This document shows positions 9,001 to 18,000 of a stretch of 47,356 nucleotides of DNA, in pieces. How positions within the stretch are numbered: the first letter of the stretch is position 1; each line of letters starts with the position of its first letter. The stretch comes from Bdellovibrionota bacterium (lineage in GTDB: Bacteria > Bdellovibrionota_C > UBA2361 > JBGSMV01). The stretch spans positions 1-47,356 of the forward strand of contig JBIKWF010000022.1 in NCBI GenBank assembly GCA_044356455.1, given 5' to 3'. Made by a program: the position numbers.

Positions 9001-12000
9001 GGCAGCGCTTCACGCTGATGCGATTGTGATAGGCGAGGGAGAGCTTGCTTGGCCAAACCTGATCAGAGACTTTGAAAATAAAGAACTTCGTCCGCGCTAC
9101 GACACCCGTGGCAGTGGCCGCGGATTCGACCTCGCTGATGCGAAGGTGCCAAGTTATCACCTCCTTGACGTGGAGCGCTATAATCGCATCACCCTTCAAA
9201 CCACCCGCGGATGCCCTCTCGATTGTTCCTTCTGCGCAGCATCCCGCCTTATCAGCCCCTATAAGAAAAAACCTTTGCAGCTGGTCCGTAAGGAACTTGA
9301 AGAAATCATAAAGATTTGGAAGCGTCCTTTCATCGAGCTCGCGGATGATAACTCATTTGTTGATAAGCGCTGGGCCAAGAGCATCGCAGAGTTGTTCCTT
9401 GATTATCCTCTGCGTTGGTTCACCGAAACCGATATCTCAGTCGCTGATGATCCAAAGCTTCTTGAGTTGCTCGCGAAATCGGGCTGTGTCCAGATGCTCA
9501 TCGGATTTGAGGCAGCAAGTCTCTCTGCCCTTTCCCATACCGACTCTCGCGGGTGGAAGGCTGGGCAGTTTGAGCACTATCGCTCAAAAATTGCGCGCAT
9601 CCAATCCTTTGGTATCTCGGTGAATGGTTGCTTTATTCTTGGTTTTGACTCCGACGATAAGGATTGTTTTTTACGCACCCGCGAATTTGTGCACGAAGCT
9701 GGTCTTGCGGAAGTTCAGGTAACGATCCTAACCCCGTTTCCCGGCACCGAACTGTATGCGAAACTTCGCAGGGAACAGCGCTTACTTTCTGACGTTTTCT
9801 GGGACCGTTGCACCCTTTTTGATGTAGTCTTCCGCCCGGCTCAGATGACTTCCGCCGAGCTGGCAGAAGGTTTTCGCTGGCTCATGCGGGAGCTCTACAC
9901 CGACGAGAGAAAACGAGAGCGCAGATTGTTTATGAAGCGCGCCGCGCGTGCGCGAAAGGAGAAAGGGCATGCTTCAACTTCATAGCTCATTTTTGCGGTG
10001 CCTTCGGGTACTCACGTGGCGGGCTTCGCGAGAAGATTTTGCAGCATTCAGCAGCAACGATTTAAAAGTTGGACTCCTGCTCACCTGGCTCGTGGGCATG
10101 GGCCGCTGGTGGGACGATCCACGGGCGGGAATTCTGCAGCACCTTGGTGTCGGGTCGGTAGTCTATGTGTTCGTTCTTAGCGCCATACTCTGGGCTGTGG
10201 TACTGCCTCTCAAACCTGCGCGCTGGTCTTATCTGCATGTCCTTACGTTCGTATCCTTCACCGCGCCTCCTGCAATTCTATATGCCATTCCCGTGGAGAG
10301 ATTTTTTGACTTAGACACCGCGGGCATGATGAATGTTGCCTTTCTCGCCACGGTGGCTTTATGGAGGGTGGCGCTACTTCTCAGATACCTGCTTCGCCAT
10401 GCTCGGCTTCCTATATTTGAAGCATTAGTTGCTTCTCTCATTCCGCTCATGGGCGTTGTGGTGAGCCTCGTGGCGCTCAATCTGGAACATGTCGTGTTCG
10501 ATATCATGGGGGGAATACGCGAAGGCAGTGAAAGCGCCAATGATGCCTCTTACTCGATTCTCTTTGTTCTCTCGATGCTGTCGTTTTTTGGGTTCATACC
10601 GGTGCTCCTCGGCTATGGGCTGTGCATATGGAAAGCCCGGGGAGCGAAGCGCGAGTAAGAGCGTTGGTATTTAGGGAAGCTCTGAGGAAATCGTCCTGCG
10701 TGCTCTTCGCGTCCCCGTCTCCGCCAAAGCTGCGCCGAAGTCAGGCTCGCTGCAGCCTGGGGGCGTAGGCGGCTTCGCGTTAAACCCAAGCATTGCGGGT
10801 GAGCGATATTTTGCAAACAACGCGAAGGGGAAGAGGAGGTTTTTCAGAGGTTCTTTAGTTGATTGTTCGAGGAAACTCGGTAGACGAGTAAAGAAGGGAT
10901 GAACGCGGTGACTGCTCCACTACCTAACACCCCGCTCAAGCAGGAGCCCTTTCCATCAAAGCACTGTGTCATCAAGAGATCCTTCAGCCCAAATCATCGA
11001 CCACGGCAAACTCACGGTCCGCTCCCCAGATCTAAAAGCTCACGTAACCCATTAGACTTGCTGTGATTATGAGACGTCCTACCTAATCGCCCCCGTGCAA
11101 GGGGCCCTCGCAGATGCGCGGTACTTACGGTCTTAAGTGGGCATCCTGTGAGCAATAAAGCTTAGATCCTTGGCGAGCCGCGACTCGCCACTTTCCCGAA
11201 TTTCTTATAGAATCTCGGTCCTTACGCCCTGTGCTCAAGGAACGATACGACCGAATGAAAAAAGCCCTCGCCCTACCTGTCATCGGCCTCTTGGTCGGAC
11301 TCTCGCTTGCGTGGGGTGTCATTGAGGGTAAACGCTGGCTCCTGGGGCAACTCATGGGGGCTCTTCAAGACGAGCTTACCAAGTCCTGCCCTTGCACGCT
11401 TGCCTATGATTCAACGGAACTCTCCCTACTCACTCTCAGCGCAGTCGGGAAAAACATACGAATAATCGAGAATCATCAAACTCGCCTACGTTTTGAAACA
11501 ATCGTCGCTCGCTTTAGCCTTTCGGATATCACGAGCAAGATTGTCCGCATCACCGATCTTTCGCTCACCAAGGGATACTCGGTAGGAATCGATGACGAGA
11601 GTACGACCTACAAATTTATAGATCAGCTTTCAGCCCCTCCTCCTCCCGAACGCCGCAATCTCGATCGCTGGAGAGTTAAACTAGAGGGTCTGCGCGTTTC
11701 AGAGGGACGCTTCTCAGAGCGAATTGGTTCATTTCGAGTTCATGGACGGGGCGTGTCTCTCTCGATGTCACGTAATGCCCGTGATAATTTCGAGATTTCT
11801 CCCCAAATAAAAGATCTACAGCTGATCTTGCCTCGTGATGGCAAGGTAGCATCGCTCGGGAGCGTTGATGGCCTTGTAGAGATAACCGAACCCGCCGTCA
11901 ATTTGAAAAAGATCCGGCTTACCCGGCACGATGCGAGACTTGAAATCGCAGGGGCCGTGCTGCAAAAACCAAGAGCCCCCCTCGAGGGGGAAATGCATTA

Positions 12001-15000: not shown

Positions 15001-18000
15001 CAGCGGGAATACAATTTTCTCTCCTGCAGATTTTCTCGAAACCATTAATCTCTTTGGAAGAAAACAGCCCTTTGGCAACAATACTATCTCCATACTGCTT
15101 AGAAACATTGTACGCCGCTACAACGAGCGCGGATATCTCCTTGCCACTACCTCGTTCACCAGAGCTCGCGATGACCAAACAGGTCGTGTCACCTTTCACA
15201 TTGAAATCAGCGAGGGGAAATTATTTCGTGTCGATCGCGTCGAGCTGAAGGGTCTCCGCTCCATTGAGGAGTCTGAATTGCGGCAGATTCTTGAGCGCTC
15301 CGATGCGAAAGCAGCGAAACTTATATTCTCCCCGGACTTCGCAGTGGAAGATCAATTGCAGGTGAATACCGCCACCCTTACAAGAGCATTGGTTGAGATG
15401 GGATTTCCAAACGCTCAAGTTTCGGTTGAGACGTCGCCGGACTCGAATACATCTACCGTTGCAATTATCTATTCTGTAGAGGAGGGCGCACGTGAACTTG
15501 CACATGCAATCAGAATACAGGGATCTCCTGCCGAAGTACTTCTCCCTCCTCTCCCCCCTTTTCCCGCCGCAATTCCAGAGGTTAACAAGTATACCCAAGA
15601 GCTCTCCCGGGCACTTTCTGAATCGGGGTATCAATCAGCGTCCATCGAGGCATCTCTACCGGATGAAGAGGGCGCGATTCAGCTTACGGTAGTCCCCGGA
15701 ACCCAGCAAACCATCAGCACCATCAACATTGAAGGCAACTCAGCAATTGAAGCTGCCACTATCTACGCTGAACTTCTGCTCTCTCCGGGTAGCCCGTTAC
15801 GAGAAGATTTGATTCAAGAGAGCAAACGCAGATTGCTGCGTCTTGGGGTATTTAATCGAGTGGATGTTTCCCTTGAGCCTGATGAGGCAACGGCTCACTC
15901 TTCTCGTCTTTCCATTCGAGTTCAAGAACGTTCGCTCCGCACACTCTCACTAGGCGGAGGAGCCAACTCAGAGCTCGGACTACATCTTTTTGGTGAAGCT
16001 ACCGATCGCTCACTTTTTCGGGATGGAAGGAGCTTTACCGCACGCCTCGACACCTACTACGATAGAGTCGCAACTTCGATTAGTCAGGGCATTGCAAGTC
16101 TCACGTACGCGGATCCTTCCCTCTCAGGAAGCGATTTCGGCTTTGTTTCAGATCTCAGATTTCAGCGCCTTGACCTATCCACCCAAGAATTCAACCTCGA
16201 TAGAGTAGCGCTCGCCAATTATGTCCATAGGTCCTGGGAATCGGGCAGCACCATTTCGCTCGGTCACACCCTCCTCTCGGAGAACCTTGACAATGTGTCA
16301 CCTGGCGCAATCGTCGGACCGTTTGATACGGGTACCGTGCGGCTAAGTTTTCTCTCCTCAGTTCTTACTCTCGATCGCCGAGATGACCCTCTCAACCCCA
16401 CGCGCGGCTACACTGCCTCTCTGGATTCGCTACTTGCGACGGAGTCTCTCGGTTCCGAAGCCAATTACGGCGGCTCGACAGCTCGCTTCTCGTTTCTCGC
16501 CCCGCTTGAGCCACTGTCCCCTCGTTGGTCGTTCGCTGCAAATGCCCGTACGGGCGCGCTTTGGACTTTTGGGGGCACAGACGTAGTACCTATAAGCCAG
16601 CGCTTTTATTTGGGTGGTAGAAATTCGGTACGAGGATTCCGCGAGAACACCCTAGGCCCACGCGGATCTGATGGCGCGGTGCAGGGAGGTGATTTCTTCG
16701 TCTCACAGAGTCTTGAGCTACGCTACCTGCTGAGCGAAAGCACTTCCTTGATTGGTTTTCTTGATATGGGCGGACTCTACTTCCTTGATGAGAGCATCCG
16801 CGCTGATGATTTGCGAGAAAGCACCGGAATGGGATTTCGCTACCTTTCACCAATCGGACCTGTCGGTTTTGACCTTGGCGTTCCTCTTGATGAGCGCTCG
16901 GGTGAACCGTCGTTTCGCATCCACTTCAACATTGGGACCAATTTCTAGCCCCCCTAAGCTATTGTAATTTAAGCAGATCTGAGATTCTTGCGACCTATTT
17001 TCAACTACTTGGCATCAAAACCCAAGTATAGCGGTTTTACTTGGCAGGTCCGGTGTGGGCACTGCCAGCGCAAGAGAGGATTCTAGCGCAATGGTGCGTT
17101 TCCCATGGAGGGATTGGTTATGATGGCGGTGGTCGTTGCAGGTTCAATTAGCGGGTCGTCCAAGGACGAACAAATTCTTGGGTCAACCATTCGCCTCCTT
17201 AAGGAGCATGGCGTTACCCACGTCGCAGTCGCCTCTCGTTTTGCAACCGTCCCACAGCCAGGCGTTGGGCTAATCACCTATTCCGAACGCTTCTCTCTTG
17301 GGACTGCAATTTCAGAATATGCACGCTCATTCGAGAACAATCGAGTAATCCTTGTTCCTTACCAAGGGTCTGAGATCAGAGATTTTGGAAGGGCACTCGA
17401 AGTGCTTACCTCGATCGACACGAACGCAACTATTGCCTATGCACCGGTAAATCAAGGGAGCCTTCCCGTAGAATTTCCAGGAATGAGTGCGGCAGGCATG
17501 CTCTCAGAAAAGCTGCTGCAAGAACTTCAACCAGGCATGACAGTTCCGGCCGCTGCAATGTCAGTGGATATCGGGCTGCTCCTCGAAACGCAGACAACTT
17601 CTCAAACGTTACCTGGTTTGGCTCTTGAGCTATTCTTGGAAGCGCAGCAACGCGGGGATTCTCTGAGCGAGAGTGCTCCAGCGGTCACCGTTTCTGGATC
17701 GCCCGAAGCACTGCTGCCTCCAAACACTGACATTGCTGCCTCGGTTCGGAAGGCCATTGAGTCAATTGCAATCGAAGATCTCTTCCCTTCCCTTCCCTGG
17801 TCTAGCAGCGAGCGAGAGAGCGGAACGTCCGCATATCACTCGCTCGCCGCCAAATTTATTCGCTTGGGAGATCTTTCCAGTGCCGAGACCTGTCTCGACC
17901 GAGCAGAGGAACTTCACTCAAGTCCAAGAACTCTGGCACTGCGAGCGGTAGTTGCCATGGAACGCGGCGAGACCTTCGGGGCAATTGCAAAACTTATTGC

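Follow-up and report, generated by a model that had tools for sequence, protein, structure and literature searches.

The gene at 11255..16948 on the forward strand of the window (the whole stretch of DNA analysed, 47,356 nucleotides from a Bdellovibrionota bacterium of the order UBA2361) encodes a single chain of 1,897 residues, in which a TamB-like protein is joined to an Omp85 protein with six POTRA domains; in the bacteria studied so far these are two distinct proteins. The order name is that of the initial annotation and is absent from the NCBI taxonomy. We consider it likely (probability about 0.7) that the product acts as one intact chain in the manner of TAM, the translocation and assembly module, as a trans-envelope phospholipid bridge; from its sequence, this one protein probably spans the whole cell envelope and is anchored in both membranes. 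What is new is the topology, together with the fact that it originated repeatedly; its parts and its likely function were known already.

Results

The reading frame runs from the ATG at 11255 to 16948 without an internal stop, as the initial annotation had proposed (taking an upstream GTG as the start gives 1,905 residues), and in 84 of the 90 further genomes from this order the junction likewise lies within a single frame. Pfam places TamB at 716–1058, POTRA in four stretches (the best at 1486–1558, with POTRA_2 at 1082–1134) and Omp85 at 1614–1897, which, together with the models, upholds the proposed order of TamB/DUF490, POTRA and C-terminal Omp85. The protein is the only PF04357 match in this genome. 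Genes for dihydrolipoamide acetyltransferase and lipA (5943..8480, forward strand) lie outside the machine and mark the synteny of fused and split loci. Promoter and terminator scans were at chance or close to it (6 sites versus 3.1 ± 2.1, and 8 versus 7.6 ± 2.8, respectively), and an Rfam search returned no match. One contig listed for sequencing run X2 crosses the junction (14262–15871) with zero differences and is not counted as independent support, X2 being a possible source of this DNA; among the listed pieces of runs X3–X5, none bridges the junction, and no indels or joints are listed. No RNA data set appears among the listed runs.

Residues 26–715 (11330..13399, forward strand; mean pLDDT 79) were modeled as an N-terminal helix and a continuous all-beta taco, the body of the bridge, for which the best Foldseek matches were TamB (9xdc_B, E 3.5e-10) and LPD-3 (9cap_A, E 5.8e-9). 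DUF490 follows at residues 716–1073 (13400..14473, forward strand), comprising the end of the taco, helices at about 938–988 and six C-terminal strands. It matches PF04357 with an E value of 7.5e-33 (114.7 bits, cut-off 22.4), E. coli TamB 23sp_B in a profile search of the PDB (E 2.4e-19; a profile was required, a single-sequence search giving a chance match only) and 9xdd_B in structure comparison (Z 16.9, rmsd 3.9, 243 aligned). Whereas DUF490 stands at the protein C-terminus in TamB (PMC4494059), here it stops at residue 1073 of 1,897 and is internal.

The six amphipathic C-terminal strands (residues 992–1073; 14228..14473, forward strand) are present in both models with alternating hydrophobic columns, and have a mean identity of 41% as against 25–27% in the taco body. 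The junction had been described as a low-confidence region (pLDDT below 50 for about residues 946–1076), which does not hold for our models: the six strands have a pLDDT of about 70–86, and values below 50 are limited to residues 951–982 and 803–818. The last strand (1062–1073), with D1067 present in 38 of 46 homologues, is the counterpart of the TamB strand pairing with TamA β1. The terminal Phe of the TamB β-signal is not retained here.

The six POTRA domains (residues 1081–1558; 14495..15928, forward strand), delineated from the secondary structure of the model, are collinear with those of the split partners, and POTRA3 is unusually well conserved (54%). The Omp85 barrel (residues 1562–1897; 15938..16948, forward strand; PF01103, E 1.8e-42) has 16 strands, a conserved β1, a loop-6 motif that we take to be the one named VRGF, and a terminal Phe (Phe in 45 and Tyr in 1 of 46 homologues); β1–β4 are 57% conserved among homologues, and residues 1323–1897 superpose on Pseudomonas TamA 8us1_A (Z 24.3, rmsd 4.8, 520 aligned). 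The POTRA domains, 16-strand barrel and loop-6 motif of the Omp85 superfamily are thus all present, with a POTRA count that is neither the three of proteobacterial TamA nor the five of canonical BamA. The BamA model TIGR03303 scores best for the barrel half (284 bits, just under its cut-off of 297), and the TamA model NF047950 gives the outer half 117 bits, under its cut-off of 625. Of the TamB-TamA fusion initially annotated, the join of TamB to an Omp85 protein therefore stands, and the assignment of the outer half to TamA does not; the low TamA score and the six POTRA domains indicate a TamB partner of the BamA-paralogue type. On these profile scores we class the barrel half as a BamA paralogue with six POTRA domains and not as a TamA of the proteobacterial type. 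The separate canonical BamA that had been proposed was recovered on contig C137 (636 bits with TIGR03303).

We infer that a TamA-TamB hybrid barrel would form inside this one chain. The strand register of E. coli TAM runs from T267-E1258 to G273-D1252 (bioRxiv 10.64898/2026.03.22.713439), and on our mapping T1563, G1567 and G1569 of β1, with D1067 of the last TamB strand, would fit it. The TamB C-terminus tolerates an extension: the E. coli hybrid barrel structure was obtained with a His tag there (PMC12800296, available portion), and in the split TamBs of this class a tail follows the last strand. On our mapping, the position of E. coli K283 is Phe1579 in 46 of 46 homologues, so that the E. 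coli salt bridge is not preserved in the same form. A complex prediction for DUF490 with POTRA4–6 and the barrel gave a median score of 0.25 (mark 0.32), which we count neither for nor against the pairing. A mean-field co-evolution analysis of the six strands against β1–β4 of the barrel, at effective depths of 52 and 30, gave scattered top pairs with no reliable hairpin signal. An indirect hint in favour of the hybrid barrel is that structures 1mpr, 1a0s, 5t3r and 2vqi, which we take to be barrels of more than 16 strands, align to the model from residues 285–369, a start that falls in the six strands or shortly ahead of them, and on to the barrel (Z 10–13, judged by first and last aligned residues only).

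If the intact chain mainly inserted or chaperoned certain outer-membrane proteins, or served as a mechanical tether, its TamB strand would leave the lateral gate for clients. The preference of the barrel half for the BamA model and the retention of six POTRA domains would suit such a role, as would the non-hybrid state that one TAM study (PMC12800296, in the part available) saw in roughly half its particles. However, the genome has its canonical BamA, a tethered strand at high local concentration would compete for β1, and the hybrid state has been reported as stable and functional in lipid transport (bioRxiv 10.64898/2026.03.22.713439); we therefore regard such a main role as unlikely. AsmA-like and YdbH-like genes are also encoded in this genome (the list was drawn up without the AsmA_2 family and may be incomplete), so the 1,897-residue protein is not necessarily the principal path for lipids.

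The fusion linker, residues 1074–1080 (14474..14494, forward strand), is fixed in length: the stretch from reference position 1066 to 1085 has 20 residues in all 46 homologues despite a mean identity of 37% at the linker, which fits a structural joint rather than a loose spacer. The split Omp85 partners have signal-peptide-like N-termini; homologue alignment and hydropathy (highest 15-residue value 1.39) reveal no hydrophobic or signal-peptide-like segment at the fused junction. These properties of the seven-residue junction argue against the chain being a precursor that is cut in the periplasm to TamB and TamA-like products, with an ordinary TAM as the working machine. The two low-confidence loops of the model, and the degradation of E. 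coli TamB on TAM overproduction, could be cited for such processing, but both loops are internal to DUF490, and cleavage in them would leave the barrel half still carrying the docking strands. Processing of this kind seems improbable to us.

At the N-terminus, residues 1–25 (11255..11329, forward strand) form a basic N-region and a glycine-patterned hydrophobic helix, which we interpret, on hydropathy, alignment and the model, as a signal anchor that is left uncleaved in the inner membrane. The hydropathy peak here (2.29, 19-residue window) is the sole window above 1.6 in the whole protein, and the hydrophobic stretch (7–25), followed by Lys26 and Tyr28, falls within a helix modeled at 2–44. 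G15 is present in 44/44 homologues, G19 in 39/44, and G or A at position 21 in 34/43. The G19-x-G21 small-residue pattern could in principle be used by signal peptidase, leaving a protein held by the outer membrane only that contacts the inner membrane via its N-terminal domain or a partner, and signal anchors are difficult to tell from signal peptides (PMC4494059). We nevertheless think cleavage quite improbable: hydrophobicity runs on to position 25, an Ala-x-Ala site occurs in at most 1 of 45 homologues at any position from 14 to 35, a lipobox occurs in 0 of 46, and 1,110 of 1,367 surveyed TamBs are predicted to have signal anchors (PMC4494059).

The junction query (residues 701–1500) matched in 122 of 124 genomes of the phylum; the breadth of an earlier search was reproduced, its exact count (118) was not. 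Within the order, the 84 genomes with the junction in one stop-free frame stand beside none with a split pair and six that are uninformative (G043, a weak match; G070 and G095, none; G118–G120, partial, two of these at contig ends). A Pfam search for TamB gave no match in G043 (92% complete), G070 or G095. In a database search with the same query, 54 of 64 matches, one of them the window's own protein, cover 96–100% of it. The other orders had been described as split throughout, which proved incorrect: 21 loci from 20 of 33 genomes comprise 16 split pairs and five fused loci (G001, G002, whose TamB half was assigned by eye, G025, G026 and one of two G011 copies). Split relatives have tamB and then a tamA-like gene as two genes, often at the lipA-linked locus that the fusion also occupies (7 of the 16 split loci, and 7 of the 10 fused ones from this order, have lipA upstream). 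Their Omp85 partners have space for six or seven POTRA domains, and compared with 13 of the 16 the fused form lacks about one N-terminal POTRA.

The initial proposal that an adjacent tamB-Omp85 pair became covalently fused in nature, throughout the order, is borne out by the 84 genomes, the shared synteny and the loss of the signal peptide. No cultured carrier was found, the 75 named loci all being metagenome-assembled. One further candidate, P0058, was rejected as a true fusion, being probably a frameshift read-through, across a TamB end that is scrambled and a segment resembling a signal peptide; the other 119 of 120 relatives among the matches listed are proteins of 1,270–1,380 residues without an Omp85 domain, one such relative having 98% identity over the 201-residue query. 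P0058 shows that assembly or frameshift artefacts occur, but for the fused frame this reading has a negligible chance and is already refuted by conservation, across 84 genomes, assemblies of four source kinds and a clean conserved junction.

A Blastocatellia clade also carries the fused form, and a single origin with the order is rejected by the AU test (p about 1e-4 and 1e-7); on these trees the fused form is found outside the order too, with an independent origin in Blastocatellia. G025 and G026 nest among split pairs in both trees (support 96–99), but their placement as one clade with this order is not rejected (AU p 0.078 for DUF490, 0.44 for the barrel), so a third origin is only suggested. 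We count two origins of the join at the least, perhaps with a third. These tests were run without G001 and P0058 (long branches), one of them without G025/G026, and with two row sets thinned.

Discussion

We propose that the N-terminal helix would act as a signal anchor, remaining in the inner membrane while Sec exports the remainder, and that the taco would fold across the periplasm. The barrel, synthesized last with its terminal Phe, would then be inserted by the separate BAM while the chain is still tethered. The last TamB strand would pair with β1 of the same chain's barrel to give a hybrid barrel as in E. coli TAM, and the taco would, by homology, conduct phospholipids to the outer membrane. 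The seven-residue linker would place the start of POTRA1 beside the end of POTRA6, and on this geometry the six POTRA domains would have to form a closed loop under the membrane. The fullest version of this reading, an uncleaved, self-contained lipid bridge with its own strand permanently in the Omp85 lateral gate, its six POTRA domains closed into a ring and its repeated origin, is tentative, and we put its chances somewhat short of even.

E. coli TAM (9xdc, 9xdd, 23sp; PMC12800296; bioRxiv 10.64898/2026.03.22.713439) shares the signal anchor (putative in our protein), β-taco, DUF490 helices and six strands, POTRA domains and 16-strand Omp85 barrel, with sequence and fold matches to both subunits. 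It consists of two subunits, in contrast to the one predicted chain here (TamB then barrel), in which the β-signal strand is not at a free C-terminus, the barrel has no signal peptide of its own, there are six POTRA domains rather than three, and the TamB part has 1,073 residues rather than 1,259. The fixed 1:1 ratio of the two parts, advanced as a consequence of fusion, is itself not new, having been reported for E. coli TAM (PMC11014939, available portion). The arrangement in Acidobacteria and Aquificae (the part of PMC4494059 available), with a second, duplicated BamA-like Omp85 with extra POTRA domains by tamB, beside a canonical BamA, is alike; here, however, the two are covalently joined, the signal peptide is gone and the taco is roughly 130–260 residues shorter.

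Veillonella parvula MlaD also unites an inner-membrane helix and, at its C-terminus, an outer-membrane barrel in a single polypeptide, both anchors being supported by fractionation, and is a proposed phospholipid carrier (PMC10665443). It differs in forming an MCE hexamer, in having a helical tunnel and a barrel of 10 strands, and in being an ABC-driven, retrograde system, and is unrelated to AsmA/TamB or Omp85. The claim to a first single-chain trans-envelope lipid transporter therefore yields to MlaD and, within the literature searched, holds only for the AsmA/TamB bridge family. WD40- and patatin-type Omp85 proteins (PMC4104836, in the part available) also carry a partner-like domain in the same chain as the barrel, but have no inner-membrane anchor or bridge; DUF490 has no mention in the main text of that paper. 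No TamB-Omp85 fusion was seen in the available part of Heinz et al., 2015 (PMC4494059), and our literature search found no paper describing one.

The role of TAM, as insertase, lipid bridge or both, is debated, and two 2026 cryo-EM studies differ on how permanent the hybrid barrel is (PMC12800296, in the part available; bioRxiv 10.64898/2026.03.22.713439). In this natural one-chain form the docking strands are still under selection though not needed to hold two proteins together, and the linker length is fixed. The fusion offers a ready construct for full-length structure determination and complementation, and its design could be copied in engineering a fusion for E. coli. It raises a question of biogenesis, namely whether BAM can insert a barrel tethered to the inner membrane; if our reading is correct, BAM would be able to insert an Omp85 barrel so tethered. 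A standing hybrid barrel, if true, would be natural evidence that lipid delivery, not client insertion, is the conserved job of TAM.

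Architecture and Junction of the Fused Protein

The gene at 11255–16948 (+) is one stop-free frame of 1897 residues, in which Pfam places TamB/DUF490 (residues 716–1058) and Omp85 (residues 1614–1897) with POTRA domains between them. The uninterrupted TamB/DUF490-POTRA-Omp85 order proposed in the initial annotation is thus borne out by translation, by Pfam, and by two AlphaFold2 models (built from 50- and 52-sequence alignments, with mean pLDDT of 81 and 79), which predict an N-terminal helix (residues 2–44), a continuous all-β body, or taco, to about residue 930, helices (938–988), six strands equivalent to the C-terminal strands of TamB (992–1073), six POTRA domains (1081–1558), and a 16-strand barrel (1562–1897). 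For the N-terminal model, the best structure matches are TamB of E. coli and LPD-3, a bridge protein of eukaryotes. The C-terminal model aligns with TamB DUF490 (9xdd_B; Z 16.9, rmsd 3.9 over 243 aligned positions) and with TamA of Pseudomonas (8us1_A; Z 24.3, rmsd 4.8 over 520). A profile search identified the fused gene as the sole DUF490 match in the genome; the separate canonical BamA reported earlier is indeed present, on a different contig (636 bits versus a cut-off of 297).

In TAM, the E. coli translocation and assembly module, two reports describe the final one of TamB's six C-terminal strands as pairing with TamA β1 to give a hybrid barrel (bioRxiv 10.64898/2026.03.22.713439; PMC12800296). 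All six strands are present in the fused protein, with alternating hydrophobic faces, and their mean identity among 46 full-length homologues is 41% (25–27% for the taco body, 57% for barrel β1-β4). By a mapping that we infer, Asp1067, kept in 38/46 homologues, and Thr1563, Gly1567, and Gly1569 of β1 would match the strand register published for E. coli. The TamB β-signal has lost its terminal Phe at the corresponding fused position, and the position of E. coli Lys283 appears to be a Phe, both of which count against an exact copy of the E. coli junction. Docking tolerates an extension at the TamB C-terminus: the 9xdc structure was solved on TamB bearing a C-terminal His tag (PMC12800296), and the split TamBs of this class carry a tail past the last strand; split Blastocatellia TamBs have Phe as last residue. 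Alignments of larger barrels to the C-terminal model start inside or just ahead of the six strands and run on into the barrel, giving a hint of a hybrid barrel in the model.

Proposed Mode of Action

We consider an intact one-chain, TAM-like lipid bridge, comprising anchor, taco, and self-paired hybrid barrel, to be the most likely working (probability about 0.7). The N-terminal anchor would be left in the inner membrane on Sec export, the taco would fold, and the separate BAM would then insert the last-made barrel, whose terminal Phe occurs in 45/46 homologues. TamB's last strand would pair with β1 of its own chain, ending at the periplasmic face beside the start of β1, with POTRA1 beginning 7 residues on; the six POTRA domains would therefore need to form an out-and-back loop. 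POTRA3 (residues 1245–1320; window 14987–15214) is 54% conserved, versus 28–36% for the other POTRA domains, and in split partners, too, it gives the best match among the N-terminal POTRAs; its conserved surface may form a contact within the POTRA loop.

An insertase or tether role is unlikely. That the chain is cut into two products is improbable: a sequence check of homologues saw no signal-like segment at the fused junction, and the distance from last strand to POTRA1 is identical in 46/46 homologues. Cleavage of the N-terminus is more improbable still, the N-terminal helix having a basic start, a hydrophobic stretch to residue 25, and then Lys and Tyr, with neither an Ala-x-Ala site nor a lipobox found in it in the homologue alignment; it looks like a signal anchor. 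Within 11255–11420, the anchor helix has a Gly-xxx-Gly-xxx-Gly pattern, possibly for packing with an inner-membrane partner, and a conserved Cys-x-Cys lies at residues 45–47; Cys555 and Cys587 (window 12911–13020) are invariant; these cysteines might form disulfides.

Conservation and Origins of the Fusion

The junction query (residues 701–1500) matches 122/124 phylum genomes, and 54/64 protein database matches span 96–100% of the junction region. Among the 90 other genomes of order UBA2361, the junction lies in one stop-free frame in 84 and a split tamB/Omp85 pair in none, with six uninformative, in keeping with the proposal that the fusion is fixed in almost the whole order. The fused frame is not an artefact, a reading of negligible probability given these 84 genomes and the different appearance of a genuine artefact, the protein P0058, which has a scrambled TamB end and an internal signal-like segment. 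P0058 was rejected as a genuine fusion on these grounds and because the remaining 119/120 listed relatives are stand-alone TamBs. One genome of this order (G043; 1.8 Mb, 92% complete) has no Pfam TamB match, a possible loss.

Other orders were sampled through 21 loci from 20/33 genomes. The adjacent split pairs attributed to them were found at 16 loci, where tamB directly precedes a distinct Omp85 gene whose start resembles a signal peptide, but the other five loci are fused (in G001, G002, G025, and G026, plus one of two copies in G011). The gene lipA lies upstream in 7/10 fused same-order loci, 7/16 split loci, and G025, which argues that the fusion happened at an inherited locus and, with the adjacency of the split relatives, upholds the proposed fusion of a neighboring tamB-tamA-type pair. 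From fused POTRA1 onward the protein is collinear with the split Omp85 partner. Ahead of this point 13/16 split partners have at least 100 residues, with a direct extra POTRA match in five, and 3/16 have 40 or fewer; this leading stretch and the signal-peptide-like start indicate that the join removed the signal peptide and probably one POTRA.

G011 (L039 and L040, on contigs C2 and C3) carries both a split pair and, on a 21-kb contig, the fused copy, which nests inside the clade of this order, pointing to horizontal transfer or a contaminated bin. The fused form in G001 and G002 (loci L055 and L156; family f22, small genomes of 1.2 and 1.8 Mb) is shorter (~1660–1700 aa) and divergent, with a junction and β1 resembling this order's type. 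At L037, L050, and L053 (G008, G009, and G025), the lipA upstream of tamB is a 537–605-aa frame, by eye apparently a LipB-LipA fusion.

A second fused family (~2200 aa) has source names of Blastocatellia or Acidobacteriota; 75 named loci comprise 37 fused, 29 split, 3 running past DUF490 to the contig end, 1 in pieces, and 5 uninformative. DUF490 and barrel trees agree on three fused groups, each beside or inside its own split relatives. In AU tests, a single clade uniting this order with the Blastocatellia fusions was rejected (p 1.05e-4 and 1.4e-7); one uniting it with G025/G026 was not (p 0.078 and 0.44). Sequence comparison thus supports at least two origins and suggests a third, and the fusion is not the event within UBA2361 only that had been assumed. 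In 201 sampled Acidobacteriota genomes, at least 34 of the 146 DUF490 matches listed lie in frames of at least 2000 aa, a count of frame length irrespective of a barrel (a further 108 matches fall outside the 146; 4 rows of unpublished genomes were left out). One Acidobacteriota assembly (G124) has three fused paralogues (L056, L057, and L060), and G126 has a single fused copy together with a TamB frame of 1475 aa.

Genomic Neighborhood

In 7/10 same-order loci, a gene of 365 aa that gives weak TPR matches (17105–18202) lies a short way downstream of the fusion; no fetched split locus has it. A 905-aa protein without Pfam match (2956–5673, −), oriented divergently to the acetyltransferase-lipA genes, is kept at that place in 5/10 same-order loci. 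Three large multi-pass membrane proteins without Pfam match (19543–21957, 24831–27248, and 27245–29074; 9–10 predicted helices) look by eye like GT-C-type glycosyltransferases. The window also encodes a protein that looks secreted (22142–23392; start rich in Cys, long tract rich in Ser), and an Alternative complex III-type operon (37044–45228, −; cytochrome c7, molybdopterin/4Fe-4S subunit, NrfD, ActD, and cytochrome c).

Relationship to Known Systems

In databases the fused proteins are named as TamB or BamA and carry both Pfam domains. No description of a TamB-Omp85 fusion was found in a search that took papers by title and start of abstract, with most subscription journals outside it, nor any mention in the available parts of PMC4104836, PMC6791001, PMC10345924, PMC11014939, and PMC12800296. 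The fused protein cannot be called the first single chain in both membranes among lipid transporters, as Veillonella MlaD, an unrelated MCE protein, was already so described (PMC10665443). Nor is its barrel half TamA, as annotated: in contrast to proteobacterial TamA it fails the TamA model, and with six POTRA domains it is similar to the duplicated, multi-POTRA form of BamA from which, according to Heinz et al., TamA arose (PMC4494059). The genome also encodes AsmA-like and YdbH-like genes, so the fused gene may not be essential. With its internal DUF490, single chain, and six POTRA domains in the barrel half, the fused protein is not a standard TAM member, but would work alike and, by homology, would transport lipid.
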